Shown: positions 3,043 to 59,350 of the stretch, one piece after another | Position numbering within the stretch: the first letter of the stretch is position 1 | Layout of the letters: each line of letters opens with the position of its first letter | IMG/VR virus record: IMGVR_UViG_3300045988_136451 | Strand: one strand, 5' to 3' | Origin: a virus | DNA length: 64,000 nt | The notes under the pieces: generated by a model | What the model was told of the DNA's origin: nothing | Database searches by the model: none | Seen by the model: only the letters and a program-made list of their open reading frames with translations | Program-made: the position numbers and the translations under genes

Positions 3043-3058
3043 TCGATTATTTAATTCA
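3043..3058 (-). promoter_or_regulatory. AT-rich palindromic motif copy (degenerate right arm) upstream of gene 2711-3028
   Basis: Minus strand TGAATTAAATAATCGA-GAAAGGAGACGGAC-ATG. Confidence 0.5.
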
Positions 3059-3247
3059 GGCGAGCCGACGTATCTTGCCGGTTCCCCGGAAAATATGCCA
3101 CGAGCTTACCGGCACCTTCGCCCCGCACCCTCCGCACACCAGAACGTGGTCGAACTCGAAGCGCTCGTCCCCGTCGCAGCGCAGATCGTGCTCGACAGTC
3201 CATTCCGTCGGCTTCTCGCAGCGCGGGCAGTAAAGCCAATCGTCCAC
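3056..3247 (-). CDS. small zinc-ribbon protein (CPRC...CGGCG)
   Basis: ORF track extends to 3292, but that N-terminal extension is translated through an extended -10 promoter (TGGTAAGAT, 3273-3281). A GTG at 3247 is preceded by RBS AAAGGAGG, giving a 63-aa protein with two CxxC pairs. Confidence 0.45.
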   Translation of the reverse strand: MDDWLYCPRCEKPTEWTVEHDLRCDGDERFEFDHVLVCGGCGAKVPVSSWHIFRGTGKIRRLA

Positions 3248-3264
3248 AACGGCCTCCTTTCGTC

Positions 3265-3312
3265 CTCGTGCGATCTTACCACATTCCTTCACTGTTGTCT
3301 TAACTTTTTCTC
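3265..3312 (-). promoter_or_regulatory. promoter cassette copy 1: AAGACA, 17 nt, extended -10 TGGTAAGAT
   Basis: Minus strand AAAAAGTTAAGACAACAGTGAAGGAATGTGGTAAGAT. Follows terminator 3373-3394 and precedes RBS plus GTG of gene 3056-3247. Confidence 0.55.
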
Positions 3313-3325
3313 TTAATTCTTTTTT

Positions 3326-3925
3326 TTACTTTCGTCTTTCCGCATCCTGTTGAAGAGCGGTGGAAAAGCAAAGGGGCGGCCCGATGGCCGCCCCTCTCAA
3401 TCGCCCTGAAGCCCCCCCCCGGCGCTGCTCTTCCAGCGCCTCGTCCACGCGCCTCTCGATGCGGCCTTCCACGAGCCAGCACACGACCTCCGGCACCGTG
3501 AACGGATTGGAGGCGTGCCCTCCCGTAACCTCGTCGTAGACCTTGGGCACGATGTCGAGCAGCACGCTGTAGTCGTGCAGCTCCGCAAGCACCTTCTCCT
3601 TCGAGAGCGCGCCGTCCTCGTCGGTCACGAGCCGCAGCCAGAACTCCTCGTCGAACTCGCGCCTTTCGCCCCGCTTCTTCTCCGCGACCGCGCGCCCGGT
3701 CGTGTGCTCCGTTCCGGGGAACGGCTCGAACGTCACCGTCCCGTCGCCCGACCCGTGCAGCACCGCCGCGCCCTCGTAGCAGCCGTTGCACACGTCCATG
3801 TGCGCGCCGACCGCGTACGGCTCCGTCCTCTGCCCCCATCCGTTGCGGTCGAGCCATACGGGCACCACAACGCCGACGCGGATGTCTCCGTGGCCGAACT
3901 CGCCTCCGCACACCTCGCACCTCAC
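3326..3925 (-). CDS. hypothetical protein (CEVCGG...CNGC); C-terminus set by a G9 homopolymer
   Basis: The long ORF 3326-4111 is trimmed to GTG 3925, just after the stop of the upstream gene. A G9 run (plus 3412-3420) lies 30 codons from the end. As sequenced, the frame reads through the terminator hairpin at 3373-3394. With G8 it would stop (TGA) immediately before the hairpin. Confidence 0.4.
   Translation of the reverse strand: MRCEVCGGEFGHGDIRVGVVVPVWLDRNGWGQRTEPYAVGAHMDVCNGCYEGAAVLHGSGDGTVTFEPFPGTEHTTGRAVAEKKRGERREFDEEFWLRLVTDEDGALSKEKVLAELHDYSVLLDIVPKVYDEVTGGHASNPFTVPEVVCWLVEGRIERRVDEALEEQRRGGASGRLRGAAIGPPLCFSTALQQDAERRK
3373..3394 (-). terminator. intrinsic terminator hairpin (GGGGCGGCC-ATCG-GGCCGCCCC + U-rich)
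   Basis: Perfect 9-bp GC stem, then TTTGCTTTTCC on the transcribed strand. Confidence 0.6.
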
Positions 3926-4335: not shown

Positions 4336-4340
4336 CTTCT

Positions 4341-4899: not shown

Positions 4900-5188
4900 C
4901 GTCGTCCTCGCTTTCCATGGTTTTAGCTTCGTAGTCGATCGACATGGAGCACATGAGCTTGAATTCTCGTTCGCACACCGGGCACTCCGCCTCGTTTTCG
5001 TACTCGTCTCCGCTGATCCATCCTTCGCGATCTTCGTAATCGACTTCGAGGCGAGCGCCGCAATGCGGGCATTCGTCCGGCATGATGCGTATCCTAGCCC
5101 CGTCGAACGCCGGTGCGCTTGCAAGCGTTTCTATCTGCTCCATCGCGGCCGATTCGAGGTTCTGCGCGTATATTTTCAAGTCGCTCAT
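4883..5188 (-). CDS. small zinc-ribbon protein (CPHCG...CPVCE)
   Basis: 101-aa ORF with two CxxC pairs and an acidic composition. Confidence 0.45.
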   Translation of the reverse strand: MSDLKIYAQNLESAAMEQIETLASAPAFDGARIRIMPDECPHCGARLEVDYEDREGWISGDEYENEAECPVCEREFKLMCSMSIDYEAKTMESEDDGVLLG

Positions 5189-6360
5189 AGCGTGTTCTCC
5201 TTTTCAACAATTGCGATTCTTTCGCCAATCCATCGCATCACCGGAACTGCCATGCTGTTCCCCAGGGCCTTATAACGAGGAGCGTCGGGGCATTCGTCCG
5301 CAGACTTCCCGCGATAGGGTATGCGCGTCCATTCGTCGGGAAAGCCTTGAAGTCGCTCGCATTCGACTGGCATGAGGCGGCGAACCGATAGCCCCTGCGT
5401 TACGGAGGGCGGCATTCCGCCGCATTTGAGCGTTCCGGAGAGCTCTGTGTCGCACGCGGCATTCGCCGTATCGTCTGCCAGGCATATCACCGGTTCATTG
5501 CCCTCGATCAAAACGGCTCCGCCGTCATGGCCCCCGGTGGCGTTCGTGTAAAGGGTTTGATAGGCCCCTTCGCAATGGAACACGCGCGTCGATTGCGTAT
5601 CCCATTTGTTCAGGCAGCTGTCGTACACGACGGCTGGAACGTCAATCGTGTTCAGCGTATAGCTCACGCCTTCCTGGTTGTAGCCCACGCCGTTCTGCCC
5701 GAAGTGAGCGCCGCGCGCTATATCACCTTGGATGCAATATGGCTCTTCACAGTGCTTGCGAGCGCCGCGTAGAGCTGCGGCGGCAAGCTCCTTCCTTTTC
5801 TCCTTGCTCGATCCATGATTCCAGCGCAGGTCTTCGCCTTCAAAGAGTACTTCGGCGGCACGTTCCCCGTCACCAAGACAGCCGACAAGGAACACACGCT
5901 CGCGTCTTTGTGCCAGGTCGAAAAACTGCGCATCGAGTACTCTCCACGCCATACCGTACCCGCACGCATCCATTTCGGATAGGAGCTGTCCGAAAGCCGC
6001 CCCGCCTTCGCTCGACAACGCTCCCGGGACGTTCTCCCACACAAACCATCGTGGACGGATTGCACGAACCGCTCGTATGTACTCGAACATGAGGCCGGAT
6101 TCTCCGGCAAGCCCTTCGCGGTTTCCCGCGACGCTGAATGACTGGCATGGGCTTCCGCCTGCCACAAGGTCAATTGATCCAACTCTATCACTCCAATCAA
6201 TGCGCGTTATGTCGCCGAGGTTCGGAACGGACGGGAACCTCTCGTTAAGCACGGCGCACGCGAACGGATCTATCTCGGAGAACGCCACAGGCTCCCAGCC
6301 GAGCGGTTCCCACGCAACGCTCGCGGCCTCTATTCCGCTGAAAAGGCTGATGTACTTCAT
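5185..6360 (-). CDS. DNA (cytosine-5)-methyltransferase
   Basis: Start at MKYISLFSGIEA, with ATGA overlap to the upstream gene. Canonical C5-MTase motifs in the canonical order: FSGIEA (motif I), GGSPCQSFSVAG (PC motif IV), ENV (VI), QGFPDEW and RYKALGNSMAVPV (IX/X). Confidence 0.9.
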   Translation of the reverse strand: MKYISLFSGIEAASVAWEPLGWEPVAFSEIDPFACAVLNERFPSVPNLGDITRIDWSDRVGSIDLVAGGSPCQSFSVAGNREGLAGESGLMFEYIRAVRAIRPRWFVWENVPGALSSEGGAAFGQLLSEMDACGYGMAWRVLDAQFFDLAQRRERVFLVGCLGDGERAAEVLFEGEDLRWNHGSSKEKRKELAAAALRGARKHCEEPYCIQGDIARGAHFGQNGVGYNQEGVSYTLNTIDVPAVVYDSCLNKWDTQSTRVFHCEGAYQTLYTNATGGHDGGAVLIEGNEPVICLADDTANAACDTELSGTLKCGGMPPSVTQGLSVRRLMPVECERLQGFPDEWTRIPYRGKSADECPDAPRYKALGNSMAVPVMRWIGERIAIVEKENTL

Positions 6361-6716
6361 CGGGCACCCGCCTTCCTCGCCCTGCGCTTCTGTGCGGCCC
6401 ACTGGCTCACGGTCTTAACCGGCATCATGAGGCTTCGGGCCACGTGAGCCTCTAGCTGCGCGCCCTCGCTGCGCTCCCACCCGTCGAGCATCGCGAGGCC
6501 GTCGGCCTGCGCGATGATCGCCATGAGGGTGATCCGCATTGCCGCCGGCCACTTCTCGCCGGGTCGCACGTCCCAGTGCGGGATGCGGACGATGTAGCCG
6601 CACGCCGCCAGCTCGTCGGCTGCGGCCTCGAACGCCTCGCGGTTGTCGTTTGGCATGCCGATGAGTTCCAGCTTGTCGTCGCGGAACGTCTTGTCGATAT
6701 ACGCTATCTTAGGCAT
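6357..6716 (-). CDS. DUF4406-like (nucleoside 2-deoxyribosyltransferase-like fold) protein
   Basis: MPKIAYI...GMPNDNREAFEAA...LDGWERSEGAQLE matches the conserved pattern of the small phage DUF4406 proteins (GWE.S.GA..E). Domain assignment is from memory, not a search. Confidence 0.5.
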   Translation of the reverse strand: MPKIAYIDKTFRDDKLELIGMPNDNREAFEAAADELAACGYIVRIPHWDVRPGEKWPAAMRITLMAIIAQADGLAMLDGWERSEGAQLEAHVARSLMMPVKTVSQWAAQKRRARKAGAR

Positions 6717-7923
6717 CCTCGCCCTCCTTCTCCAAAAGCTCGTCGATCTCGTCCTGTATGAGGTGCATGCCGAGGAACCGCAGGCCGCTCGAATTGTCGA
6801 TGATCTCGCGCAGCTCGGCGCGCGCACGCTTCGACAGGCGCGGCTGCCCTTTGAGCCAGACGAGAATCTTCTTGTAGTCGCTCTTGCCGAAGGCGTTGAC
6901 GGCGGCCTCCCTGCTGGCGTTCGACGACACCTTCGCCTCCAAGCCCTCGAACTCGTCGAGCGCGTCGTCGGCGATGGCGATTATCTTGGAGACGATCTTG
7001 TTCTCCTCGTGGAACTCGCTCGCCTTGGCATCGCTGCCGAGCGCCTGCCACATGCCCTTGGTTCCGACGAACGTCCCCTCGCCGAGGCCGTTCTTCTCGA
7101 AGTAGTAGCGCTTGAAGCCCTCGCACTGGTCTTCGTCTATCTCGTCTAGGACGGAATCTGCGTCGGACACGTCCAGATGCTTCTCGTCGAACGAGTTGAC
7201 GAGCAGGCTCACGTCCCCGCACGACGTGAGGGCGCGGGCCGTAAGCTCCTTCAGCTCGTAGTGGTTGATCGCCTTGCGGTCTCGGTCGAGGCTCACGTGC
7301 TCCGGCAGGAAGTCGTAGCCGTACGCGAAGCCGGTGTCCTCCTGCACGAACAGGCCGCCGACGTAGAACTTTCCCTTGTAGCGGCTCTCCAACATGATCG
7401 TCCCGTACTCGCTCTCGCGTTTCGCGCCGATGTCGCGGCCCATGAAGCGTTCGAGGGCTATGAACCTGTCCCCGAAGGAGCGCATCATGGCGGGCGAGAT
7501 GCCGCCGATGCGGAACTCCGTGAACTCGCCGCCCGGAACGCCGGTCTCCTCCACGTCGATCTGCAACGATTCCTCGCCGAACGTCTCGGACAGGCGGAAC
7601 TCCGGTGTCCAAGTCTCCGCGTCGGTGACGACCTTCACCGGCTTGCGCTCGCGCGTCAGCACCAGAAGCGCCAGCTTGTATCCCTCGCCGTACTTCCCGA
7701 TGTAGCGCTCGTCGTCCTTGCCCGATTCGCCGAGCAGGAGCGTCGATGTCTTCAGTCGCGCGCCGTCGGTGAGAATGGACAGCGTTTCGCGGTCGTACGA
7801 CACGGACACCTCCGCCCCGTCCGCCTTCTGGTCGATGGCGTTCTGCAAAATCTCGCGGACTGCCTCCTCCACGCCCCAGCCGCTCACGTACTTGGGCGAC
7901 AGGCTCAACTCGATGGTCTTCAT
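6709..7923 (-). CDS. GHKL/Bergerat-fold ATPase domain protein
   Basis: N-terminal EAVREILQNAIDQ (N-box, ExxxNAxD), LTDGARL (D-G box) and GKYGEGYK (G2 box). ATG is preceded by RBS AAGGAGG and palindromic motif 7938-7953. Confidence 0.5.
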   Translation of the reverse strand: MKTIELSLSPKYVSGWGVEEAVREILQNAIDQKADGAEVSVSYDRETLSILTDGARLKTSTLLLGESGKDDERYIGKYGEGYKLALLVLTRERKPVKVVTDAETWTPEFRLSETFGEESLQIDVEETGVPGGEFTEFRIGGISPAMMRSFGDRFIALERFMGRDIGAKRESEYGTIMLESRYKGKFYVGGLFVQEDTGFAYGYDFLPEHVSLDRDRKAINHYELKELTARALTSCGDVSLLVNSFDEKHLDVSDADSVLDEIDEDQCEGFKRYYFEKNGLGEGTFVGTKGMWQALGSDAKASEFHEENKIVSKIIAIADDALDEFEGLEAKVSSNASREAAVNAFGKSDYKKILVWLKGQPRLSKRARAELREIIDNSSGLRFLGMHLIQDEIDELLEKEGEDA

Positions 7924-7937
7924 GGCCCTCCTTGCTC

Positions 7938-7953
7938 TCGATTAAATAATCGG
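7938..7953 (-). promoter_or_regulatory. AT-rich palindromic motif (CCGATTATTTAATCGA) upstream of GHKL ATPase gene
   Basis: Minus strand CCGATTATTTAATCGA-GAGCAAGGAGGGCC-ATG; arms CGATTA/TAATCG. Confidence 0.55.
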
Positions 7954-7954
7954 C

Positions 7955-8010
7955 CTTGACCCATCTTACCACAAGCCTTAACTCTTGTCTTAACTTTTTC
8001 TTTCTTTTTT
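7955..8010 (-). promoter_or_regulatory. promoter cassette copy 2: TTAAGACA, spacer, TGTGGTAAGAT
   Basis: ~90% identical over ~45 nt to copies at 3265-3312 and 12076-12128. Located between terminator 8027-8050 and palindromic motif 7938-7953. Confidence 0.55.
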
Positions 8011-8026
8011 TATCTTACAAAAGAAA

Positions 8027-8050
8027 AGGGGAGGGCTTGTGGCCCTCCCC
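8027..8050 (-). terminator. intrinsic terminator hairpin (GGGGAGGGC-CACAA-GCCCTCCCC + UUUUCUUUUG)
   Basis: 9-bp stem followed by a U-run, just after the stop of gene 8052-8372. Confidence 0.6.
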
Positions 8051-8051
8051 G

Positions 8052-8372
8052 TCACCACGCCGTCTGCCTGCGGAACGGGCATCTCGTCCGGGCGCACGAC
8101 TTCCTCGCCACCTCGACGGCGCAGCACGTGTTCGCCTGATCTCCGCACATAGGGGACGCCACGTGCCAGCCGGGGCCTAGAACCGTTTCGGCCAGCCGGT
8201 CGAGGGCGGCCTGCGCGTCGGTCGGCTGCGGCATGATGCCGTAGTCCCCGCCGTTGCCGGTCGCCCCGCTTTCGTCAACGAACGAGAGCGTGATCTGATA
8301 CCCTCTGTTTATGTTGTCCATCTGCTGGTCGAAGTCCTTCTTCTCCATCTTGGTCGGGAACTTCGCCTCCAT
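8052..8372 (-). CDS. hypothetical protein
   Basis: Trimmed to MEAKFPTKMEKK. Followed by an intrinsic terminator hairpin at 8027-8050. Confidence 0.35.
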   Translation of the reverse strand: MEAKFPTKMEKKDFDQQMDNINRGYQITLSFVDESGATGNGGDYGIMPQPTDAQAALDRLAETVLGPGWHVASPMCGDQANTCCAVEVARKSCARTRCPFRRQTAW

Positions 8373-8389
8373 GCTCCCGCATGCCGCCG

Positions 8390-9091
8390 TCACCCTTCGC
8401 ATGCCCCTCCTATCTCCTCCAACGTCCTGCGCTTCATGTTGCCAAGCACCTCCTCCATGGCGACGAGCCGCCGCCAGCAGTCTGGCAGGTTCTCCTTGAT
8501 CGCGCGCAGTTCCTTCTGGTTCTTGTTCTTGCAGCACCAGCACGACACCCTGTCCAAGATGTCGTACAGGCGCACGCCGTCCTGCTCCCACTCATGGCCG
8601 TGGGCGTAGCACGCGGCGAGGCAGTCGGCCTCGCGCATGCCCCAGTCAGCGAGCGGGAAGCGCTTGTAGGGCTTGCGCTCCTTTTCGAGGCGCGCCGTCT
8701 CGTCTGCGGCTATGCCGACGTACACGGTCGCCCCCCCCAGCTCCCTCTCCGCATGGCGGTCTATCGCCCGCAGCTTCTCGGTCGTGCCCCAGCGGCACGG
8801 GCCGCCGCACCAGCCGTAGCCGTGCTTGTGGACTTCGCCGGTCTTCCGGCTTTTGACCGGGCGGCAGAACATGCTCCACCAGAACGGGTCTTTGGGGCGC
8901 AGCTCGACGTAGCGGATGCCGTTCTCGCGCAGCAGCGGCAGCATGCGGTCGCGCTCGGCGTAGATCGCGTCGAACTCCATGCCCGTGTCGTAGAAGACAA
9001 CCTCGTCGAGCGGCATGCCGCGCTCGATCAGGCCGTGCAGCATGGCGAGGCTGTCCTTGCCCCAGCTGACGCTTGCGATGCAGCGCTTCAT
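8390..9091 (-). CDS. PAPS reductase / PP-loop ATP pyrophosphatase family protein
   Basis: Start MKRCIASVSWGKDSLAML; SWGKDS is the PP-loop (SGGKDS) motif. Contains an in-frame G8 run (plus 8731-8738). Family assignment is by motif. Confidence 0.75.
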   Translation of the reverse strand: MKRCIASVSWGKDSLAMLHGLIERGMPLDEVVFYDTGMEFDAIYAERDRMLPLLRENGIRYVELRPKDPFWWSMFCRPVKSRKTGEVHKHGYGWCGGPCRWGTTEKLRAIDRHAERELGGATVYVGIAADETARLEKERKPYKRFPLADWGMREADCLAACYAHGHEWEQDGVRLYDILDRVSCWCCKNKNQKELRAIKENLPDCWRRLVAMEEVLGNMKRRTLEEIGGACEG

Positions 9092-9093
9092 GG

Positions 9094-9252
9094 CTACCCT
9101 TCCCTCTCGTCGGCGCGCCTGCGCCTCGCGGCCCTCTTGTCCTGCTCGGCCTTGCACTCCGGGCCGCAGTATTTCTGGTTGCGGGAGTTCTTCGCGAACG
9201 TCCTCCCGCACACCGGGCACGTCCCCGTGCCGCGCGCCTTCCAACCGGTCAT
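9094..9252 (-). CDS. small zinc-ribbon protein (CPVCG...CGPEC)
   Basis: 52 aa. ATGA overlap with the upstream gene. Confidence 0.45.
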   Translation of the reverse strand: MTGWKARGTGTCPVCGRTFAKNSRNQKYCGPECKAEQDKRAARRRRADEREG

Positions 9253-9632
9253 CCCTCGCTCCTCTCCCTCGGCATCCCTCCACGGTAAAGCCCCGCCTCC
9301 TTCAGTCGGCGCAGGGCGAGCCGCTGCCTCGCGTTGCACCGCCCTAGGGCGCAGTCGTTCCACACGGCCACGCACCGGGTCATCTCGCACAGAGCGTCCA
9401 TGCACCCGCAGGCGGGCAGCACGTCCCACGCCTGACCCTGCTCGACGAAGCCGCGCAGGCGCATCAGCTTGCGGACGAGCCATTCCTGATGCGACGGGAC
9501 GGCGTAGTGCGGCGTTCCTCCCTCGTCGATGCACACCTCCAAGTAGTTCACGAAGGTCGCCTTGTGCGTCTCGATGTCGAAGGGGGAGCGCAGCACGCGC
9601 TGCTGCTCCGACGCTCCGGGGAGGCTACTCAT
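9249..9632 (-). CDS. hypothetical protein
   Basis: 127-aa ORF, same strand, overlapping its neighbours by a few nt. Confidence 0.45.
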   Translation of the reverse strand: MSSLPGASEQQRVLRSPFDIETHKATFVNYLEVCIDEGGTPHYAVPSHQEWLVRKLMRLRGFVEQGQAWDVLPACGCMDALCEMTRCVAVWNDCALGRCNARQRLALRRLKEAGLYRGGMPRERSEG

Positions 9633-10051
9633 CGTCCGTCTCCGTGGTCATCCAGTCCTCGACGCTGCCAAGCTCGTCTGCGGCGCACAGGATGCGCGCG
9701 AAGGGGTACTCCGGCACCTCCATGTCGCCAGCCGCCTCCAAGCCGATCACGTCGTTCAGGAGGTCGTTCGCCTCCGTGACGGCGGCGCGCCAGTCCTTCT
9801 GCGCATCGACGCTCCCGTAGGTCGCCTCGAAGATGTCGGGCTTCACGGGGTACAGCTCCCCCTTGATGCCCTTCACGATGTAGTCGCCCTTGCGCGCCGT
9901 CATGCTCCCTTCGAGCGTGCGCACCTTCGCCTCGCCGTCCGGGGTCAGGCGCAGAACGCCGCTCTCGAACGCGACGTGCCCCCCACTCCGGGGTCGCCTC
10001 CTCGCCGTAGCGCCACGCCTCGATCTCCAACGGCTTCTTCCTGTACCTCAT
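9625..10051 (-). CDS. conserved small phage protein, interrupted by a frameshift at a G6 run
   Basis: ATG at 10051 sits 5 nt after a perfect AGGAGG and encodes MRYRKKPLEIEAWRYGEEATPEW. After a G6 run (plus ~9979-9984) the sensible continuation (GHVAFESGVLRLTPDGEAKVRTLEGSMTARKGDYIVKG..., the ORF 9625-9924) is in the -1 frame. G5 would give one ~140-aa protein. Confidence 0.45.
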
Positions 10052-10218
10052 CGCCCCTCCTCGTTTTCGCACTCGTCGCATCTGTCGCTCGTCGGCTCGT
10101 AGTCTCTTATCCCCAAGTCGAGCCAGTCGCGCAAGATGCGCAGCTTGCGCGTGTCGGGTTCCTCGGGGATGACGGCCTCGTAGCGGCCTCTCTCGTCTTC
10201 CAGCTCAATTCTCGGCAT
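10048..10218 (-). CDS. hypothetical small acidic protein
   Basis: 56 aa from MPRIELEDERG; RBS AGGAG 9 nt upstream. Confidence 0.4.
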   Translation of the reverse strand: MPRIELEDERGRYEAVIPEEPDTRKLRILRDWLDLGIRDYEPTSDRCDECENEEGR

Positions 10219-10231
10219 GTCGGCGCTCCTC

Positions 10232-10453
10232 TCAATCAGTCTCGTACCGCTTGATGTCCTCGCGCCAGCGCAGCTCGTCTCCGAACCCAACGCCCTCAAG
10301 CTCGCCCGTGGAGACCACGCGCCCCTCGTCGTCCAGAGGGTACAGCGCCGTGTTGCCGTCGAACAGCGACACGACGGCTATGCGGTGCTTCAGCGTGAGG
10401 GCGGTCAGGTCTTCGAGGAACGCCGCAGCGTCCCTCGCGTCAGTCGTCCCCAT
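10232..10453 (-). CDS. hypothetical protein
   Basis: 73-aa ORF. Confidence 0.4.
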   Translation of the reverse strand: MGTTDARDAAAFLEDLTALTLKHRIAVVSLFDGNTALYPLDDEGRVVSTGELEGVGFGDELRWREDIKRYETD

Positions 10454-11122: not shown

Positions 11123-11397
11123 CACAGCCCCTTCCTGTGCTCGTCGTCGAGGCGCGCGTACTCCCTGCGCTCCTTCTGCGTCGATGCGCGCAGGCACGCC
11201 TCGGCCTCCTCGTCCGACACGTCGAGGCCGATGCCGTCGGGCGTGCGGAGGACGATGCGGCGCAGCCCGTTCTTCAGCGTGTACTTCATGTAGACCTTGA
11301 CCGGCGTTCCCTCCGGCGTGACCACGGGCGCGCCGTCCTCCCCGTAGGTGGTCAGGTCGCAGTCGAGGGCGTAGACGCTCCCCATGCGCTTAGTCAT
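11122..11397 (-). CDS. hypothetical protein
   Basis: Trimmed to MTKRMGSVYALDCDL. Confidence 0.4.
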   Translation of the reverse strand: MTKRMGSVYALDCDLTTYGEDGAPVVTPEGTPVKVYMKYTLKNGLRRIVLRTPDGIGLDVSDEEAEACLRASTQKERREYARLDDEHRKGL

Positions 11398-11899: not shown

Positions 11900-11915
11900 T
11901 CGATTAAATAATCGG
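11900..11915 (-). promoter_or_regulatory. AT-rich palindromic motif upstream of gene 11390-11884
   Basis: CCGATTATTTAATCGA-GAAAGGAGACGGCGA-GTG. Confidence 0.55.
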
Positions 11916-12311: not shown

Positions 12312-12327
12312 TCGATTATTTAATCGG
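12312..12327 (-). promoter_or_regulatory. AT-rich palindromic motif overlapping stop of 12320-12727, upstream of the candidate ncRNA
   Basis: CCGATTAAATAATCGA, with the TAA stop inside the motif. Confidence 0.5.
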
Positions 12328-14305: not shown

Positions 14306-14321
14306 TCGATTATTTTATCGA
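14306..14321 (-). promoter_or_regulatory. AT-rich palindromic motif (TCGATAAAATAATCGA) upstream of gene 14105-14290
   Basis: TCGATAAAATAATCGA-GAAGGAGCAGAGACA-ATG. Confidence 0.55.
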
Positions 14322-22664: not shown

Positions 22665-22680
22665 TCGATTATTTTATCGA
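22665..22680 (-). promoter_or_regulatory. AT-rich palindromic motif upstream of dnaE, overlapping the HNH gene stop
   Basis: TCGATAAAATAATCGA-GAGAC-ATG. The embedded TAAAAT lies 17 nt downstream of an AAGACG -35-like hexamer. Confidence 0.55.
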
Positions 22681-26353: not shown

Positions 26354-26369
26354 TCGATTATTTTATCGG
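26354..26369 (-). promoter_or_regulatory. AT-rich palindromic motif upstream of primase gene; TAAAAT sits 17 nt from TTTACC
   Basis: GCTTTACC-17 nt-TAAAATAATCGACG-ATG. The motif doubles as a -10 element here. Confidence 0.55.
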
Positions 26370-44980: not shown

Positions 44981-46864
44981 TTACGCGTCGCGGGAAACGG
45001 AGAACACGAACAGCTCGCTCGCAAGCTCGGTGAGCATGCTTTCCGCGAGAACGTCTATCCCCATGTACACGTGCCTGTCGCGGACGAGGACGGGTGCGTT
45101 CACGACCACATTGACAATGTTTTCAGCGCTCTGCACCTGATCGTAGCCCGTCGCCCTCCCCTTTCCCATGACGGTGAGCAGCCCGGTTGCCCCAAGCCCT
45201 ATGTAGAACGAGCGGTCGTAGTCCGAAACCAAGCCGCCGTCGAGCGTGACCGAGTAGATGTACTCGCGGATGTTCGCTGCGCTCTCGCCGAACAGGCCGA
45301 CGAACGGGTACGGTCGCATCTCCACGGTGTCGTCCACGTAGTATCCGCACCGACCGACGAGGCAGACGTACTTCCCGCCGCTCTCGATTATTTTATCGAC
45401 AACCGCAATCGCGTCGGCCTCCATGTTCGACACCATGAACAGGCATGTGGCGGCGTTCCGGCTGTACTTGTCCTCATGCTTCAGATCGTCATCGAAGAGA
45501 ACCCTCATGCGGTTGCTCGTCTTGTCGATCATGAGCGATGCCATGGAGTACCACGCCTCCATGTACGACACGTTGGCCTCGGTCTGCCAGTTCGCCGCCT
45601 GAAGCGAGCGCATGGACAGCGCCATGCCGTTGTAATCGGAGGCGTTGCGCTCCGATATGCGGTACTTGTCCATCGCGGCCCACAGCTCGATCACCTTCTC
45701 GTCCGATAGAAGGCGGTAGTCGGAGTAGTCGCCCACGACGACCTGCGAGGCGTTGTACTTCGCGAGCACGGAGAACATTCCGTCGGGCTGCGTTATGTCG
45801 GGCACGTCGAGCACGAATACCGGCTTGCACGCCTCCCCGATGCGGCAGCACACGGCGGTCAACGCCTCGAAGCTGCGAAGCTCGCTCTGCTCGTCGGTGC
45901 TCTTCTGGTACTTCATGGGCATGCCCGCATAGGCCCAGCCGTACGTGCCGAAGTCGGACGCTATGCCGCTCCTCGCATACCCGGCACCGTCGGAATCGAC
46001 TAGGCAGTAGGCGTAGTCGGGAACTATTGCCGTGAGGGCCGTCTGCCCTATCTTGGACTTGATCGAGACGCACAGCGCGCGCTGCTCCTCCGCGAGGAAC
46101 GAGCGCCACAGCAGGTAGTCGTCGTCCACCCCGTTGATGACGTAGCGGTCGCTGGGCATGACGCGGTTCCGCTCGTAGAAGTTCCTGTCAGCCGTCGCGT
46201 TGCGGTCGTATCGCAGACCGGCAAGCCCGATGCCGTCGAGGCAGTACCCGTACACGTCGGTTCCGTGCATCGTGCGCAGCTCGTCGATGAGGGCGGTGAG
46301 CGCGTCCTTCGCCCCGGACGGCGAAAACATGCGCGAGTACTCGCCCGTGCTCGACCTCTGCTGGTACGGATGGAAGTCGGGGTTCGTCGTGTCGCTCCAC
46401 AACTCTGACGACACGGCGCACGTCACGGCCACGTTGCGGTGCCTGAAACGGTCGAGCAGCTGCTTCAGAACCGGGTTCTTGCCCAGCCCGTAATCGGCGG
46501 CGACCTCGCTGTCCCAGTAAACCATGCCGTCCTTTGCGACGGTCAGAAGCACCTCGTCGAAGCCTGCGGACGCTATGTCCTCGACCACGACCCGCTCCTT
46601 GCCCACGCAGTCCGCCGCGTTCAGGCGGATGGCGTACCGCATCACGTTCGTCTCGCCGTTGGTGACGCGGTTCCACAGCTTCCACTTGTTCGAGGCGATG
46701 CGCTGGATGAGCCACACTTCGTTGACCTTCGGCGGCTGGTCGAAGCCCGACAGGTCGAACGATATGGTGAGCTTGCCGGTCTGCGTCATGCATGTTATTC
46801 CGTCGCTGCCAACGTTGGTTATCATCGCGGGCAGCATCTCGTTCTTGTTCATGTTCCTCTGCAT
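44981..46864 (-). CDS. hypothetical virion-associated protein (possible glycosidase-like)
   Basis: 627 aa. Carries an internal copy of the palindromic motif (~45384-45399, encoding VDKIIES). Confidence 0.4.
   Translation of the reverse strand: MQRNMNKNEMLPAMITNVGSDGITCMTQTGKLTISFDLSGFDQPPKVNEVWLIQRIASNKWKLWNRVTNGETNVMRYAIRLNAADCVGKERVVVEDIASAGFDEVLLTVAKDGMVYWDSEVAADYGLGKNPVLKQLLDRFRHRNVAVTCAVSSELWSDTTNPDFHPYQQRSSTGEYSRMFSPSGAKDALTALIDELRTMHGTDVYGYCLDGIGLAGLRYDRNATADRNFYERNRVMPSDRYVINGVDDDYLLWRSFLAEEQRALCVSIKSKIGQTALTAIVPDYAYCLVDSDGAGYARSGIASDFGTYGWAYAGMPMKYQKSTDEQSELRSFEALTAVCCRIGEACKPVFVLDVPDITQPDGMFSVLAKYNASQVVVGDYSDYRLLSDEKVIELWAAMDKYRISERNASDYNGMALSMRSLQAANWQTEANVSYMEAWYSMASLMIDKTSNRMRVLFDDDLKHEDKYSRNAATCLFMVSNMEADAIAVVDKIIESGGKYVCLVGRCGYYVDDTVEMRPYPFVGLFGESAANIREYIYSVTLDGGLVSDYDRSFYIGLGATGLLTVMGKGRATGYDQVQSAENIVNVVVNAPVLVRDRHVYMGIDVLAESMLTELASELFVFSVSRDA
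45384..45399 (-). promoter_or_regulatory. AT-rich palindromic motif copy inside coding sequence of gene 44981-46864
   Basis: TCGATAAAATAATCGAGAG encodes VDKIIES in frame. A full 17+ nt match is very unlikely by chance in 64 kb of GC-rich DNA. Confidence 0.4.
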
Positions 46865-49472: not shown

Positions 49473-49488
49473 TCGATTATTTTATCGA
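49473..49488 (-). promoter_or_regulatory. AT-rich palindromic motif overlapping stop of C39-like peptidase gene, upstream of hydrolase paralog A
   Basis: TCGATAAAATAATCGA, with the TAA stop inside the motif. Confidence 0.5.
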
Positions 49489-51549: not shown

Positions 51550-51987
51550 CTATGCCCCCCCCCTGATCGTGCGCAGGTTTATCTTCACGGGCCAATTAGA
51601 CCCGTTGCAGGTTCCGTCGACATCGGAGAACGTCACCTTCGTCCCGGATATGGCGGCCCTCGCGCGCCAAAGGCACGAGTTGCCCCCAATCGCGGTTCCG
51701 AAATGGAGGTCTACCGTCTTGCCGTTCGGTGAGTACACGCGGAAGGTCGGGAGCCAAACGCCGTCTTCGTACATGAACTCGAAGTCGAGCCACTGGTAGC
51801 TCGCGGCGCTCGCGCTCAACGCGTACACGTTGCCGTTGCTCAAAAGATGGCTGCCGCTCCACAAGGTCGCTACGCCCTGCTTCGAGTACGGGATGGTCGG
51901 TATCTTCGCGAGCGTGAGCGTCGGTATCTGCGCGATGTTGAGCACGGGCGTTTGAACGCCGGACGAGTTACGGTACTTCAGGTACAT
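51550..51987 (-). CDS. hypothetical protein within the collar-paralog array (unrelated sequence; G9 run at C-terminus)
   Basis: Start MYLKYRNSSGV after AGGAGG. Ends ...RTIRGGA, with a G9 run (plus 51555-51563) in the last four codons. Confidence 0.4.
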   Translation of the reverse strand: MYLKYRNSSGVQTPVLNIAQIPTLTLAKIPTIPYSKQGVATLWSGSHLLSNGNVYALSASAASYQWLDFEFMYEDGVWLPTFRVYSPNGKTVDLHFGTAIGGNSCLWRARAAISGTKVTFSDVDGTCNGSNWPVKINLRTIRGGA

Positions 51988-52457: not shown

Positions 52458-52870
52458 CTACGCGGTGCGCTTCCACATGTACACGGCGAGCCAAGGCGGC
52501 ATGTTGTTGTGCGCCGCGCCGCGCCGCCGGTATTTGCGATTCCGCCGTCCTGCCACCTGCTGCTGGGCGGCGACGGAGTATGCCACTCCCAGCCCCATGT
52601 GGCGACGTTGCCGCCGTCCTCGACCGCAAGAAGCTGATGATGATGGCTCGGCATCTCGTCGATTGTGAGCACGTGCGTGTTGGAGCCGTACGTATTGTTG
52701 ACCTTGTAGGTGTCGCCCGCCGAGACGAGGTAATGGCCCTCTCCATGCCGATGCCACGTCGTGCCCGGCCAGACCGCGTTGGGGTCGTACAGGCAGAAAA
52801 GGCACGTGCCGACAGGGAACGGGCAGTACTCCTCGAACGACGCGCCTTGGCGGAACTTGATCTTAGCCAC
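52458..52870 (-). pseudogene. tail-collar-domain protein, paralog 5, split by a +1 frameshift
   Basis: N-terminus MAKIKFRQGASFEEYCPFPVGTCLFCLYDPNAVWPGTTWHRH...HVLTIDEMPSHHH is in one frame. The family C-terminus ...AAHNNMPPWLAVYMWKRTA is in the +1 frame. The switch occurs in the GC-rich stretch ACCGGCGGCGCGGCGCGCAC (~52575-52600). Confidence 0.4.
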
Positions 52871-52885: not shown

Positions 52886-53308
52886 CTACGCCGTCCTCTT
52901 CCAGACGTTGACGGAGATATGCAGGGGGTAGTAATCTGCCCCCCCTCCCGTCGCTCTACAGGCATCCATGTCCCAGTTGTACTTTTTATCTTGGGCGATC
53001 CATGGCGGGTAAGAGCCTCTAAGCGTTGTCGTACCAGCCTCGCTGTTGTAGCCGTAATACTCGTGAGTATGCGACGGCATCTGCGCGATGCCTATCTTCT
53101 TCGAGCCTCCGGTTGAACCCGCTGCGGCATAACCGGCCGTTCCGGCGCAAGCCAGTACGCCGCCCGTCAGCTTCGCCCACGAACCGCCCAAGACGGTGGC
53201 GGGGTTCTCCGAGCCGACGGTGAGGTAGAGGCTGTTCACCGGGTACACGAGGTCGAGCATCGTCTTGCCGATGCCGCCCTCCAGATGGAACCCGCTCAAT
53301 CTTGCCAT
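52886..53308 (-). CDS. tail-collar-domain protein, paralog 6
   Basis: Start after AGGAGG. ...KKIGIAQMPSHTH...YYPLHISVNVWKRTA. Confidence 0.45.
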   Translation of the reverse strand: MARLSGFHLEGGIGKTMLDLVYPVNSLYLTVGSENPATVLGGSWAKLTGGVLACAGTAGYAAAGSTGGSKKIGIAQMPSHTHEYYGYNSEAGTTTLRGSYPPWIAQDKKYNWDMDACRATGGGADYYPLHISVNVWKRTA

Positions 53309-56061: not shown

Positions 56062-56062
56062 G

Positions 56063-56776
56063 TCAGCTCACCCTGTTGTAGGAGCCGTCTTCGTTCCACA
56101 CGTAGCGAACCATCTCCGACGTGCCGCCCGACACTTCGAGGCGCACCACGCCGTCGTCGGTCGTGACCTCTCCCTCGTCGTTCTGCCTGATCTTCTCGTA
56201 CTGCTCGTAGAGGCTCGCGCCGTAAGCATCGTAGCTCCCGCTGTTCTCCACGACCTGCTTCAGCGCCTTCAGCATGTCTTCCCAGTTGTTCGTGTCGGGC
56301 GTGTTGTACACGCTGCGCGTCCACCCAACGCCGTCGGGGATGGCGTTGAGCGCGTCGGTCGCCACGATCTCCTTGATGGTGTCGAAGCCGGTATCGACGA
56401 AGAACGTGAGCTGGTAGCTTATGGCCGCGACCTTCGGGCTGTAGCTGAACTTCGACACGTCCTTCAGGAACACCTTCCCGTTCCATCCGAGCACCGGGAA
56501 GTAGAACGTGACCGGGTTGCCGGTGTCCACGTGGTACTGCATGATGTCGGCCATCTTCTGCTGGAACTCCTCCATGCGCTGGTAGCGGTTCTCGTTCGTG
56601 AGGCCGCGCGCCGAGAGGTAGCCGGTGATGGTGAGGTCGCTGATGTTGCGCGCGATGATCTGGACGACGGTGCCGCCCTTCGTCTGAATCTTGTTCGTCT
56701 TCAGCTCGTAGCCCCATTTCGCCGTGCTGGGGTCGATGCCGAACGCGTAGTTGCCGAGCCTCGCCGTAGCCATCAC
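56063..56776 (-). CDS. hypothetical baseplate/distal-tail protein (first gene after tape measure)
   Basis: 237 aa. ATGA overlap with the TMP stop. Confidence 0.4.
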   Translation of the reverse strand: MMATARLGNYAFGIDPSTAKWGYELKTNKIQTKGGTVVQIIARNISDLTITGYLSARGLTNENRYQRMEEFQQKMADIMQYHVDTGNPVTFYFPVLGWNGKVFLKDVSKFSYSPKVAAISYQLTFFVDTGFDTIKEIVATDALNAIPDGVGWTRSVYNTPDTNNWEDMLKALKQVVENSGSYDAYGASLYEQYEKIRQNDEGEVTTDDGVVRLEVSGGTSEMVRYVWNEDGSYNRVS

Positions 56777-58983
56777 ATGCCCCCGTTGTCCGACTGCATC
56801 TGCTCGCGCCCGTTCTCGACCATGATGGCGAGCACCTTTTCAGCGTCGTCCTGCCACCTCACGGTCAGCGCCACGGGCGTTTCTCCCGTGTCGGAATCGG
56901 AGTAGCCGTACCACGCGCCCTTGTCCTGCCAGTCGAACTTGCCCGACAGGAACGACGCAGCGCCCGTCTGGTTGCCGAGCCAGTCCTTGCCGTACTCGCC
57001 GTAAGACCACGCGGTGTCGCTGAACATGCGGGCCATGCCCTCGTCGGTCATCCCGGCCATGTCCTCTGCGGTCACTTCGCCGGAAAGCTCCATGGCCTGC
57101 ATGAAGATGGCCTTCTCGTCGTCCGACAGGCTCGCGTAGTCCTTCGACAGGATGTCCTTCAGAACCGCGTCGCCCTTCTTGTCGCCCATGCTAAGGCCGC
57201 TCACGTAGTTGGACATCCCGCTGACCTCGATGATGCCCGCCTCGGAGTACGTGTTGATGCTCGATGCCTCGGTGCTTCCGCCAAGCTCCTTCGCACGTTC
57301 GAGCATGGAGTTCACGCCGTCGCCGCCCACCGATTCCTGCTGGGCGCGGTTCGCGCCGCCCACGAGAACGTCGGACAGCATGTCGAACACCCCGTCGGGG
57401 TCTTCTATGAGGCTCATTGGAAGCTGCTTCATGCCGAACAGGGACGCGAGCTGCTGCTGCACGCTTATCTGCTTCGCCATGCCGTCGATGCCGAGGCCGC
57501 TTGCGCTCTTCAGCTCGCCCACCACGCTGTTGAACTTGTCCCGGTCGCCGCTCATGACCGCGCCGATGAGCGCTTCCACGTCGCCGCCCTTCGTCTGCGC
57601 GGCGTACCCGACCGTCTGCTGTATGGCGGCTGCGTACGCCTGACCGGTGTCCATGCCCTGCGCGATGTTCTGCGACACGTTGTTCTGGAACATGGGGTTG
57701 CTCCCGTACGCGCTTATGAAGCCGTTGGCGGCGCTGTAGGTGTTGCCGCTCGCGTCGCCGAAGAAGCGGGTGAGGTCAACGCCGACCTCCTGCGCCTCGA
57801 CCGACGAGCCGGTAAGCCCCTCCATGGTCTTCGCGAAGCCCTCCTGCTGCTCCTGTATGGACGACAGGGACGCGCCCGTGCTCTCCGCCACCTGCGCGAG
57901 CGTGTCGAACTTCTCGTTCAGGTAATCGACGCTCTTGCCGCCCTTCACGACGGCCTTCACGTACTCGTCGGTCGCCTTCGAGGCGGACAGGCCGCGCTCC
58001 TGCGTCGCGTTCACGACCCAATCGTATCCCTGTCCGTACGTCTCGCTGCCGTAGGTCGCGCCGCCCGACATGAGGCCCTGCTGAATCGTCTGCACGTCCT
58101 TGTCCGAGAGGTTGGTCGTGAACTCCGTGAGCTTCGACTGGATGCCCTGCTCCACGCCGACGTTGAGGTTGCCGGTGCCGCCGGTCGCCTCCAACGAGGC
58201 GTTCTTCAGACCTTGGAACTGGTCGATGCCGCTCTCCACGAGGTTGAGACCCGCAACGGCGGTGCCGAGCACCGCGCCCACGGGGCCGAGGAACTTCAGC
58301 ACGCCGCCCGCCTTTGAAAGGACGTTGGCGATGGTGCCCATGCCGCGCGTGCCGCCAGCCCCCAGAGCGCCTATGACGGACGTAGCGCCCTGCGCGACCT
58401 CCGCTGCGGTTCCCGCGCCCTGCATGACGCGATCTGCCGTGCTAGGCCCTTCATAGCTCTCCACAAGCCTATCGAAGGAGCTTTGCTGCGCAGACGCGCT
58501 GCCCTGACGCACGACGTTCGAGTACAGCTTGTCCATGAACTCGTCGTCGCGCGCCCGCATGTCCTCCGCCATCTGTCGGCGGTCGTCGTCGAGGGCGCGT
58601 ATGAACTCATCGACCTTCTTGGTTCGCTCCGCCTGCTCCTTGTCGATCTTCTCCTGAAGACTGGCGAACGTCTCCCTCGTCTCGCGAGCGGCATCCGTCT
58701 GCTCCTCAACCGCCTTGGTGAGTTCGGGGGTTTCGAGAACCATGGCCGCGCCGGTGCCGTTGCCGTCGATGCCGACGCTGCCGCCTAGGTCGCGTATCTC
58801 CTCGATGTAGTCTTGGAACACCCCTATCTGCTTGGTCATCTTATCGACCTCGGAGACGAGGGAGGTTGCCGCCTCCTCGACAACGCTCTTCGACGCGTCG
58901 GCGCGCTGCACCAGCTCGCCCATGCGCTGCGCAACGTCCGTGGAGGACGTTACGGGCCTGCGTACCACGTTGTCTTCGGCCAT
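56773..58983 (-). CDS. tail tape measure protein
   Basis: 736 aa, A/G/Q-rich with long predicted helical stretches (IGALGAGGTRGMGTIANVLSKAGGVLKFLGPVGAVLG...). Sits immediately downstream of the G/GT chaperone pair. Confidence 0.65.
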   Translation of the reverse strand: MAEDNVVRRPVTSSTDVAQRMGELVQRADASKSVVEEAATSLVSEVDKMTKQIGVFQDYIEEIRDLGGSVGIDGNGTGAAMVLETPELTKAVEEQTDAARETRETFASLQEKIDKEQAERTKKVDEFIRALDDDRRQMAEDMRARDDEFMDKLYSNVVRQGSASAQQSSFDRLVESYEGPSTADRVMQGAGTAAEVAQGATSVIGALGAGGTRGMGTIANVLSKAGGVLKFLGPVGAVLGTAVAGLNLVESGIDQFQGLKNASLEATGGTGNLNVGVEQGIQSKLTEFTTNLSDKDVQTIQQGLMSGGATYGSETYGQGYDWVVNATQERGLSASKATDEYVKAVVKGGKSVDYLNEKFDTLAQVAESTGASLSSIQEQQEGFAKTMEGLTGSSVEAQEVGVDLTRFFGDASGNTYSAANGFISAYGSNPMFQNNVSQNIAQGMDTGQAYAAAIQQTVGYAAQTKGGDVEALIGAVMSGDRDKFNSVVGELKSASGLGIDGMAKQISVQQQLASLFGMKQLPMSLIEDPDGVFDMLSDVLVGGANRAQQESVGGDGVNSMLERAKELGGSTEASSINTYSEAGIIEVSGMSNYVSGLSMGDKKGDAVLKDILSKDYASLSDDEKAIFMQAMELSGEVTAEDMAGMTDEGMARMFSDTAWSYGEYGKDWLGNQTGAASFLSGKFDWQDKGAWYGYSDSDTGETPVALTVRWQDDAEKVLAIMVENGREQMQSDNGGM

Positions 58984-58984
58984 G

Positions 58985-59350
58985 CTACACTCCCTGCTGC
59001 TCCATCATCCGCATAAGGCCCTCCATGGTGTCGGACGTGATGCACACGTCGTCCGCCTCCTGCGACTTGCGCCATTGGCGCATCTCAATCGACTTCTGGT
59101 AGCTGTCCGGGTGCTCGTAGGAAAGCCAGAAGTCCTTGTCCTCCCTATTATCGAGGAGTTCGCGCGCCCGTTCAAGACGCTTGGCGATGTCGAGCGCCGT
59201 GATCTGCACGACGTTCAGGTCTCCTTCGAGCATCCGCCGATGATAGGCCTGCTGGCACTGCGAGAAGGCGAGCGCGACACCTCGCGGCAGCTCGTCCTCG
59301 CTGCCAGTCAGGCCGATTATTTTTTTAGCGCGCCCGCCACCTCGGCGCAC
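58985..59350 (-). CDS. tail assembly chaperone, T-frame (reached by -1 frameshift from the G gene)
   Basis: Overlaps the G gene by 34 nt in the -1 frame. The A7 slippery run lies in the overlap. Confidence 0.55.
   Translation of the reverse strand: MRRGGGRAKKIIGLTGSEDELPRGVALAFSQCQQAYHRRMLEGDLNVVQITALDIAKRLERARELLDNREDKDFWLSYEHPDSYQKSIEMRQWRKSQEADDVCITSDTMEGLMRMMEQQGV
59317..59332 (-). other. programmed -1 ribosomal frameshift site (A AAA AAA) for the G/GT chaperone fusion
   Basis: Minus strand reads GCGCUAAAAAAAUAAUCGGC. The A7 run (plus ~59320-59326) is in the last two sense codons of the G frame. A -1 slip continues ...ALKK IIGLTGSEDELP... in the T frame. Confidence 0.6.

Follow-up and report, generated by a model that had tools for sequence, protein, structure and literature searches.

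Which signal is carried by a short A+T-rich palindrome that recurs along a G+C-rich phage genome, and what reads it? The question was raised by a 64,000-nucleotide stretch of viral DNA (IMG/VR record IMGVR_UViG_3300045988_136451, referred to at its full length as the window), in which a first-pass annotation had noticed such an element upstream of several genes and had proposed a dimeric regulator of the helix-turn-helix (HTH) type as its binder. The element is functional and is selected at the nucleotide level; it is symmetric by necessity, it is oriented and it is placed at gene boundaries.

The whole window was searched on both strands with the pattern TCGATWWWWTAATCGA, allowing up to two mismatches. 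Eighteen strand-matches were obtained, which correspond to nine loci (positions 3043, 7938, 11900, 12312, 14306, 22665, 26354, 45384 and 49473), and all the near-perfect copies noticed in the first-pass annotation were thus recovered. Dinucleotide-preserving shuffles yielded a mean of 0.13 matches and a maximum of 2, against the nine copies observed. A chance or compositional origin was ruled out by these shuffles, by the enrichment at gene boundaries and by the conservation in relatives of low G+C content, where AT-richness is not unusual. The G+C content of the window itself stays at 59–68% along the whole length. A degenerate tenth copy had also been listed near 59313 (CTAAAAAAATAATCGG), and this one was discarded: it has five mismatches, its AT run is the A7 slippery site of the tail chaperone, and it was recovered by no search.

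Conservation, symmetry and polarity of the palindrome

In reverse orientation, the window matches the Eggerthella phage LE2-3 (MW679026.1) with an identity of about 99%. This phage is a 111,961-bp circular record with a contractile-tail gene set, and its host is E. lenta DSM 2243. The window itself probably derives from the IMG/VR contig 3300045988_151925. No publication on LE2-3 or on the palindrome was found in the literature searched, and phage phiKL11 was found to be an unrelated 44-kb siphovirus. Essentially all genes of the window lie on the minus strand, according to an analysis of the G+C content at third codon positions (GC3) and to the annotation of LE2-3, and the palindrome was read on this gene strand in all descriptions. 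Its consensus is YCGATWAWWTAATCGA followed by G or, with all variable positions, Y-C-G-A-T-W-A-W-W-T-A-A-T-C-G-A and then G, which makes 16–17 bp and can be summarised as YCGAT-W6-ATCGA(G). Three variants of the centre were distinguished: variant A (TCGATAAAATAATCGA), variant B (TCGATTATTTAATCGA) and variant C (TCGATTAAATAATCGA), the last being the reverse complement of B. The whole LE2-3 genome contains 16 copies, 11 of which touch non-coding DNA, a fraction that amounts to 5.8% of the genome (binomial P about 1e-10).

Conservation was followed in a syntenic series of relatives found through homologues of the primase (L104 to L109). In L104, whose primase is 79% identical and whose G+C content is 51.5%, TCGATAAAATAATCGA precedes the primase gene and TCGATTATTTAATCGA precedes dnaE, at the same places as in the window. 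In the low-GC relatives, one of them a 113-kb contig (L105/L110; 63% identical; 39–41% GC) and the other L106 (62%; 38% GC), a mirrored change of the arms was observed, giving TCAATWAWWTAATTGA. Every copy in these genomes (38–41% GC) has both arms switched, from TCGAT/ATCGA to TCAAT/ATTGA. The 113-kb contig holds nine copies in about 40 kb (eight exact and one ending in TTGG) and L106 holds three in 21 kb, including one located 17 nt before the ATG of dnaE. The copy upstream of dnaE is kept in the window, LE2-3, L104 and L106, and the copy upstream of the primase gene is kept in the window, LE2-3 and L104. Positional conservation in relatives, on which the first-pass annotation had made its proposal depend, was found at these two places and also inside a tail gene.

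No copy was present in the sister clade L107–L109, which has the same gene order (primase 46–51% identical) and carries ordinary TATAAT-type promoters in its intergenic regions instead. Scans of IMG/VR found several copies only on the window's own contig, and distant primase relatives (26–29% identity) had no motif. Among the matches listed in a scan of bacterial and archaeal genomes, only scattered single matches were seen, none of them multi-copy.

The tail-gene copy (45384..45399, minus strand, variant A) is the intragenic one that had been noticed before, and it lies in a 627-aa tail/baseplate-region gene (44981–46864). It encodes V-D-K-I-I-E as GTC GAT AAA ATA ATC GAG, in a genome in which AAA represents 3.9% of the Lys codons and GAT 10% of the Asp codons; given the codon usage, the probability of this spelling is about 7e-4. 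The motif was found at the same codons in L112 (tail protein with 82% amino acid identity), and in L110 (70% amino acid identity) the same codons read GTC AAT AAA ATA ATT GAG, the arm switch turning Asp into Asn. Moreover, four further copies of LE2-3 are kept in the relatives L113/L114, whose replication initiators are 65–66% identical at the amino acid level, while their flanks have diverged. Three of these copies are present in both relatives, in the apical loop of a terminator-like stem, inside the replication-initiator gene and just after this gene. The fourth, internal to the RtcB gene, is shared by LE2-3 and L113 only, and RtcB lies outside the L114 contig. Separately, three copies were observed within 76 bp (11422–11497) inside the DnaJ-domain gene of L105 (39% GC), each read as N-K-I-I-E/G; the DnaJ-domain gene of the window has no copy. 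This triple cluster might be an origin-like or cooperative binding array.

The anatomy of the site was derived from 17 independent copies in GC-rich genomes. No copy varies at positions 10–16 (TAATCGA), and 15 of the 17 have G at position 17. All 14 deviations from symmetry fall in the upstream (left) half (P about 6e-5), with C at position 1 in six copies and A at position 6 in eight, and the site is therefore a dyad with polarity. In the left-arm deviants (the six copies with C at position 1, and the 3043 copy with TGAAT) the right arm has not changed to match. The idea that a half-site would suffice, for instance TAATCGAG serving as −10 element plus discriminator, was rejected, because half-sites are not enriched and TAATCGA occurs only once outside full copies. 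Since half-sites are not enriched and the arm change is mirrored across genomes, dyad symmetry is required; the two halves are constrained together, as in an operator, with mirrored arms in the low-GC relatives. The centres of the arms are 11 bp apart, one helical turn, across the AT-rich spacer.

Variant A is found almost always in gene direction, at 13 or more independent loci versus two B-like exceptions, and variants B and C occur in a ratio of 7:4. The centre variants interchange at orthologous sites: the dnaE site has A in the window and B in LE2-3 and L104, the tail site at 49473 has A in the window and C in LE2-3, and the site internal to the initiator gene has B in LE2-3 and L113 and A in L114. 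This free interchange of the central W bases fits a non-contacted spacer, and it would not be tolerated by a −10 hexamer.

Placement of the copies among genes and promoters

The phage has promoter-like repeats of its own, distinct from the palindrome and also present in LE2-3, most of which carry no motif. All the promoters mentioned here are sigma-A-type predictions from sequence. Class I elements consist of TTCTTAAYT, followed by TTTAC(W), a spacing of 16–17 nt and TAnnnT; about 11 were found in LE2-3, they are also present in L104–L106, and the six of the window lie near 33540, 31363, 26402, 25425, 15493 and 14371. Class II is a repeat of about 68 bp (AAAAAGTTAAGACAARAGTTAAG..TGGTAAGAT) with four copies, located in the window at 8026–7960 and 12123–12057. 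Both classes are probably early promoters read by the host sigma-A. In the structural region, the intergenic spaces of LE2-3 contain extended −10 elements of the form TGnTAGAAT, with no −35.

In a first group of copies, the motif overlaps or closely follows a predicted promoter. The primase copy (26354..26369, minus strand, variant A, CCGATAAAATAATCGA) lies 24 nt upstream of the primase ATG, and its own TAAAAT (26360–26365) is the −10, placed 17 nt after the TTTACC (26383–26388) of a class I promoter-like element. This spacing had been given correctly in the first-pass annotation, and it is the same in L104. The copy at 14306..14321 (minus strand, variant A, TCGATAAAATAATCGA; ATG 15 nt past the motif) is located 8 nt downstream of another class I promoter-like element (TTCTTAATT at 14363–14371, TTTAAC at 14352–14357 and TGaTAGTCT at 14330–14338), so that the motif spans about +2 to +17 of the predicted transcript. 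The copy at 7938..7953 (minus strand, variant B, CCGATTATTTAATCGA; ATG 14 nt past the motif), which belongs to a window-specific island, is located 9 nt downstream of the extended −10 TGGTAAGAT (7963–7971) of a class II promoter-like repeat, and this repeat is preceded by a terminator-like hairpin (8028–8050). The centre of the motif falls at +0.5 to +10.5 of the predicted start at 14306, at 7938, at the post-initiator copy (LE2-3, L113 and L114) and at L105_17772.

In a second group, the centre of the motif is located 52–58 bp upstream of the predicted start: 49473, LE2-3 27443 (also in L113 and L114), LE2-3 57046 and L106_3446. The first of these (49473..49488, minus strand, variant A) is centred some 57 nt ahead of the start predicted for a promoter with no −35, TGGTAGAAT (49430–49438). 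The ATG of a tail gene lacking a Shine-Dalgarno sequence follows the end of this extended −10 at 7 nt (49422–49438), an arrangement that suggests that the promoter would yield a leaderless mRNA for the tail gene starting at 49422.

No recognisable promoter was found near 11900, 12312, LE2-3 13430, dnaE or the intragenic copies. The copy at 11900..11915 (minus strand, variant B) is followed by GAAAGGAG and a GTG 15 nt past the motif, and no gene start directly follows the copy at 12312..12327 (minus strand, variant C, CCGATTAAATAATCGA). The copy at 3043..3058 (minus strand), with the degenerate left arm TGAATTAAATAATCGA, is also followed by GAAAGGAG, with an ATG 15 nt past the motif end, and has its LE2-3 orthologue at 1893. 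The dnaE copy (22665..22680, minus strand, variant A) lies 27 nt upstream of the dnaE ATG, and the homology between the window and LE2-3 restarts exactly at this copy. A terminator-like hairpin directly precedes the motif at this site in LE2-3 and L104, which carry variant B, and in L106, which carries TCAATAAATTAATTGA; L105 has neither the hairpin nor the motif there. The −35 assigned to dnaE in the first-pass annotation (AAGACG, 17 nt before TAAAAT) had to be abandoned, since it is actually 15 nt away and lies within an inserted gene that LE2-3 lacks.

The overlap with stop codons was as described before, the motif including the TAA of the upstream gene at 12312 (a 135-aa zinc-ribbon gene), at 22665 and at 49473; in addition, the first three bases of the 3043 copy are the TGA stop of the upstream gene. 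A start codon 5–15 nt past the motif had been claimed for six copies. The distance is 14–15 nt at four of them (3043, 7938, 11900 and 14306), but it reaches 24 nt at the primase gene and 27 nt at dnaE. Considering all the copies, starts that follow the motif do so at 12–27 nt, and about half of the copies are not located before any start.

Possible readers of the element

In our preferred reading, with a probability of about 0.45, the element is a cis-acting site for a phage-encoded dimeric DNA-binding protein that would control transcription at the edges of transcription units. Three points are inferred: that a protein acting on DNA is the reader, that it is encoded by the phage, and in which direction it regulates. 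The mirrored arms, the acceptance of any A/T centre, the 11-bp spacing of the arms, the uncompensated deviants and the weakness of the possible hairpin favour a dimeric protein on double-stranded DNA. The motif follows the phage lineage across relatives of very different GC content and is absent from a sister clade with the same gene order, which favours a phage-encoded reader over a universal host component. In addition, the groups of positions relative to predicted promoters (over the −10, at +0.5 to +10.5 and at −52 to −58) are typical of operators and upstream activator sites. They suggest repression at the −10/+1 sites of early-type promoters and, possibly, activation at the sites near −55.

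Mechanistically, a dimer would contact the two arms, one helical turn apart, across an easily deformed AT spacer. The bound protein would shut the promoter off at sites that overlap the −10 or the very beginning of the transcript (primase, 14306, 7938 and the post-initiator copy of LE2-3). Where the site lies about 52–58 bp upstream of the −35-less extended −10 promoters of the late/structural region, the protein could assist RNA polymerase. All other copies, whether between or inside genes, could serve as roadblocks or spare sites, as described for the stoperators considered below. The spacer of variant A reads TAAAAT in gene direction, and such a site would double as a minimal actinobacterial −10 element.

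Several results weigh against this reading. No HTH repressor, ribbon-helix-helix protein, sigma factor, RNA polymerase or ParB was recognised among the open reading frames (ORFs) scanned (about 110 of the window and LE2-3 with Pfam, 10 with PHROGs), most of which match no family; the first-pass annotation had likewise recognised no regulator in the window. The only winged-helix candidate, the replication initiator LE23_54 (phrog_270, E = 2.7e-14; weak match to MarR_2), has a more probable target in another conserved block, which lies within its own gene. The polarity of the site is clear, and its invariant right half, TAATCGAG, is not predicted by a simple symmetric dimer; as almost all genes are on one strand, polarity with transcription is not separable from polarity with the genome strand. 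About half of the copies have no recognisable promoter nearby, and the promoter distances of −52 to −58 keep no fixed helical register. Finally, 8 of about 30 copies are located 12–17 nt before a start codon, abutting the Shine-Dalgarno sequence, which also fits a role as a promoter or at the RNA level. The earlier proposal of a dimeric HTH-type regulator is plausible and has gained much better comparative support on the side of the site, whose dyad symmetry is constrained, but a binder was not recognised in the ORFs scanned. The further suggestion in the first-pass annotation, that the palindrome may be the main transcriptional switch of the phage, was not substantiated: the positions relative to promoters are heterogeneous.

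Other candidates for the binder were also considered. A sequence search of the PDB with LE23_54 gave nothing significant, and neither an integrase nor a repressor was detected in the ORFs scanned. Nor do the small proteins encoded right after motif copies resemble DNA-binding proteins; that encoded after 14306 (61 aa), for instance, is strongly acidic. The conserved block inside LE23_54 (LE2-3 L001, about 30240–30345) is near-identical at the nucleotide level in LE2-3, L113 and L114, whose proteins are 65–66% identical. It contains a palindrome, CCCTCCCATCA(W5)TGATGGGAGGG, an A6 tract and two AGACTTCCC repeats. The block probably represents an origin of replication that, like that of lambdoid phages, lies inside the gene of the initiator.

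The features at gene starts could also be explained if the motif were the core of a phage-specific promoter class, for example of middle genes, used by the host RNA polymerase together with a phage sigma-like or activator protein. Transcripts would then begin a few bases past the motif, with very short leaders from the Shine-Dalgarno sequence. The polarity with gene direction, the invariant right half and the G at position 17 agree with this idea, as does variant A, whose TAAAAT fits TANNNT with G17 at the distance of +1 and which lies in the sense direction at at least 13 loci against two exceptions. At the primase gene of the window and L104 the motif does form the −10 of a TTTACC-17-TAAAAT promoter. 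At dnaE in LE2-3, L104 and L106, a hairpin stands before the motif and no other promoter fits before the start, and L105 lacks both. The 8 of about 30 copies found 12–17 nt before a start codon would be accommodated as well, and short or absent leaders occur elsewhere in the phage, as with TGGTAGAAT, 7 nt before its ATG. However, a promoter does not need dyad symmetry, and yet the arms co-vary across genomes. Variants B (TTATTT/TATTTA) and C (TTAAAT/TAAATA) do not fit TANNNT in any register and have no A at −11, and yet they replace A at orthologous sites, dnaE included. A −35-like hexamer 16–18 nt upstream or a TG extension, as expected of the sigma-A −10 class, was found only at the primase gene, and the other copies have no conserved upstream sequence. 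Three copies lie 1–9 nt downstream of the −10 of another promoter, which would create overlapping promoters, no sigma factor or RNA polymerase was recognised in the scanned ORFs, and the genes downstream span all functional classes rather than one temporal class. A promoter class of this kind appears rather unlikely. The resemblance of the core to a −10 hexamer, pointed out in the first-pass annotation, holds for variant A and the primase promoter; it does not extend to variants B and C or to dnaE, and the separate sigma-A-type promoters are mostly devoid of the motif.

An RNA-level action, with the element forming a small A/U-rich hairpin or stretch just ahead of the ribosome-binding site in the mRNA, seems distinctly unlikely. 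The element would in this case be a translational operator or enhancer, a processing site or a boxB-like antitermination signal, read by a phage RNA-binding protein or endoribonuclease. Such a role would account for the polarity with transcription, for the sense orientation of all intragenic copies and for the fact that copies often stand immediately ahead of the Shine-Dalgarno sequence or where a transcript is predicted to begin (14306 and 7938). The change from G3:C14 to A3:U14 preserves pairing, and one copy occupies the apical loop of a conserved terminator stem (LE2-3, L113 and L114). Nevertheless, the hairpin is marginal, with −2.9 to −3.4 kcal/mol for the TCGAT type and still less (−1.1 to −2.2 kcal/mol) for the TCAAT type of the low-GC relatives, and the 3043 copy cannot fold as a hairpin at all. 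Deviations of the arms are never compensated, the arm switch is genome-wide and not copy by copy, with no G:U intermediates, and no Rfam family matches the element at gathering thresholds. At the primase and post-initiator sites the predicted starts lie inside or after the motif, which would leave transcripts without it. The stable stem and the copy-by-copy compensation expected of a structured RNA element (hairpin, boxB-like or processing site) were not seen, the folding being weak, the deviating copies uncompensated and the covariation limited to the genome-wide switch, and a stable hairpin in RNA or DNA was rejected because of the marginal energies. Nor does the motif have the G+C-rich stem and U tract of an intrinsic terminator: its stem has 5 bp with two G:C pairs, and the G+C-rich hairpin found at dnaE in LE2-3 and L104 is a separate one, after which the T-rich variant B comes.

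Very unlikely, in our view, is a DNA site for replication, recombination or mobility, such as auxiliary initiator boxes, an unwinding element, or an exchange junction for cassettes or homing endonucleases. LE23_54 has one copy in its interdomain region and another just past its stop, both kept in L113/L114 and beside the origin-like block; however, this block has its own, different repeats. The best-kept intergenic positions precede the primase gene and dnaE, and copies are clustered in L105 (three within 76 bp) and L106 (two 36 bp apart), but on the scale of the genome they are dispersed and reach the tail module. The endonuclease-like insertion before dnaE ends exactly at the motif, yet only one of the five indel junctions between the window and LE2-3 coincides with a copy, for which reason the motif was also rejected as a general mosaic junction. 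The strand polarity, being indistinguishable from that of the genome strand, would agree with a replication site; the close coupling to ribosome-binding sites would be left unexplained.

Returning to the dimeric regulator, a wider version of this reading can be formulated, which we consider unlikely. A single phage protein would read the palindrome genome-wide as an early-to-late switch, turning strong early promoters off where the site covers their −10 or +1, and −35-less late promoters on from a distance of about 55 bp upstream. The specificity of this protein and the two arms of the site (CG to CA/TG) would have evolved together within a family of large gut myoviruses, as it spread over relatives that range from 38 to 64% GC.

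Accessory genes, related repeats and implications

The window differs from LE2-3 by several insertions. A 6.6-kb island (4917–11561) is absent from LE2-3, in which its flanks are contiguous. This island encodes a C-5 cytosine DNA methylase (5185–6402), a DUF4406 protein (6357–6827), a GHKL-ATPase-like protein (phrog_6077; 6709–7923), a protein with a Tad8 (Thoeris inhibitor) domain (8052–8591), a PAPS-reductase-like protein (8390–9283) and a holin-like protein (10440–10733), and it looks like an anti-defence or accessory island. Two other extra genes were found: an HNH/NUMOD4 homing endonuclease (36891–37469), and the endonuclease-like ORF (phrog_2340; 22674–23171) between dnaE and the gene upstream of it. 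The latter is window-specific, its TAA stop is the one included in the motif, and the downstream junction of its insertion is exactly the copy at 22665–22680. Conversely, LE2-3 is about 835 bp longer (71244–72079) at a point corresponding to positions of about 52463–52513 in the window. This point lies in an array of small tail-gene paralogues, which match one another at 68–75% identity, consistent with recombination between them.

Insertions within genes were also indicated. The ORF of the DnaB-type helicase (26414–29395) has 993 aa, or 781 aa as annotated, compared with 433–438 aa in relatives, which suggests an intein or another insertion. In LE2-3 (L002; 58–3279, 5222–8335 and 19054–20673), the portal protein, a protein annotated as 'tRNA synthetase' and a PhoH-family protein carry intein, Hint or LAGLIDADG domains, and the DnaE of L109 contains an intein. 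Additionally, the gene strand carries recurrent runs of 7–10 G, with CA after most of them; some lie just before starts (dnaE and the gene after recA) and some inside tail genes. In the window they were located at 22645–22652, 18238–18245, 51555–51563, 50663–50671, 8731–8738, 3412–3420 and 52939–52945. Orthologous runs of the window and LE2-3 differ in length by one base (8 vs. 9), and four copies with the shared context GTAACWG8-9CA...GTCAAG lie between minus-strand tail-fibre genes of LE2-3 (17335–18894). These runs could be slippage-prone tracts or assembly errors.

The palindrome was compared with the dispersed repeats described in other actinobacteriophages. Cluster O mycobacteriophages carry 17-bp dyad repeats, 5′-TGTTCGGNNNCCGAACA (TGTTCGG-N3-CCGAACA), of unknown function, for which a dimeric binder has been predicted (PMC4351075). 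Like the palindrome, they are short, with invariant inverted arms around a centre that varies and is mostly A/T, and they are dispersed over the genome of a non-temperate actinobacteriophage in tens of copies, many of them intergenic, about a third inside genes and most not at predicted promoters (PMC4351075). The sequence of the palindrome is nevertheless unrelated, its arms of 5–7 bp and its all-A/T centre of 2–6 bp form an AT island at 63% GC, and it is less abundant (16 copies per 112 kb). It is also polar and often linked to starts, whereas polarity and linkage to starts are reported as absent in Cluster O (PMC4351075). Conservation across very different GC contents, with a mirrored change of the arms, shown here for the palindrome, is a further point of difference.

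In Cluster A, whose phages are temperate, the stoperators are 13-bp sites without symmetry, to which an immunity repressor of the L5 gp71 type binds as a monomer; they act as operators at promoters and as elongation blocks elsewhere (PMC9283540, PMC6550527, PMC4351075). The palindrome resembles them in that it has many dispersed copies, most of which lie in short spacers between genes, frequently overlap a stop or start codon and are oriented with transcription. Unlike them, it is a dyad, and the ORFs scanned in this phage include no integrase or repressor. In Cluster K, the start-associated sequences (SAS) are asymmetric 13-bp elements that contain the Shine-Dalgarno core, lie 3–7 bp from the start and accompany only non-structural genes, while the extended SAS (ESAS) form inverted repeats that are imperfect. 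Subgroups have different consensus sequences, and the authors read this as a changed specificity of a DNA-binding protein (PMC3203893). The palindrome is likewise oriented, directly upstream of some starts, sometimes holding the upstream stop codon, and variable in consensus between subgroups (PMC3203893). In contrast to the SAS, it has no GGAG, lies 12–27 nt from starts, and is also found in structural genes, in a terminator loop and far from starts. The palindrome lacks the defining sequence or symmetry of each of these families, Cluster O repeats, stoperators and SAS/ESAS. It belongs to the general kind of dispersed actinobacteriophage repeats and to no single family, sharing the architecture and distribution of the Cluster O repeats, the polarity and placement of stoperators and part of the association of SAS/ESAS with starts.

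A different likeness is offered by dual-function regulators such as p4 of phi29 and Ogr of P2, which switch early promoters off and, from dyads placed upstream, late promoters on, the dyad of Ogr being centred near −55. The palindrome also lies over early-type promoters and about 52–58 bp upstream of −35-less promoters of the structural region. Those regulators use a handful of sites at fixed positions, whereas about half of the copies of the palindrome are at no recognisable promoter and the distances vary by 6 bp.

Essentially no molecular biology has been published for this lineage of large phages, which infect Eggerthella and related gut bacteria. A site kept across 38–64% GC, overriding codon usage and an amino acid, provides a handle for finding the regulator and for mapping the transcription units of these phages. 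Dispersed repeats are unexplained in several actinobacteriophage clusters, such as those of Cluster O and the SAS/ESAS of Cluster K, and the natural TCGAT and TCAAT specificity variants could make this question tractable. If the early-to-late switch were true, it would represent a new family of regulators and would provide a portable, orthogonal operator-regulator pair.

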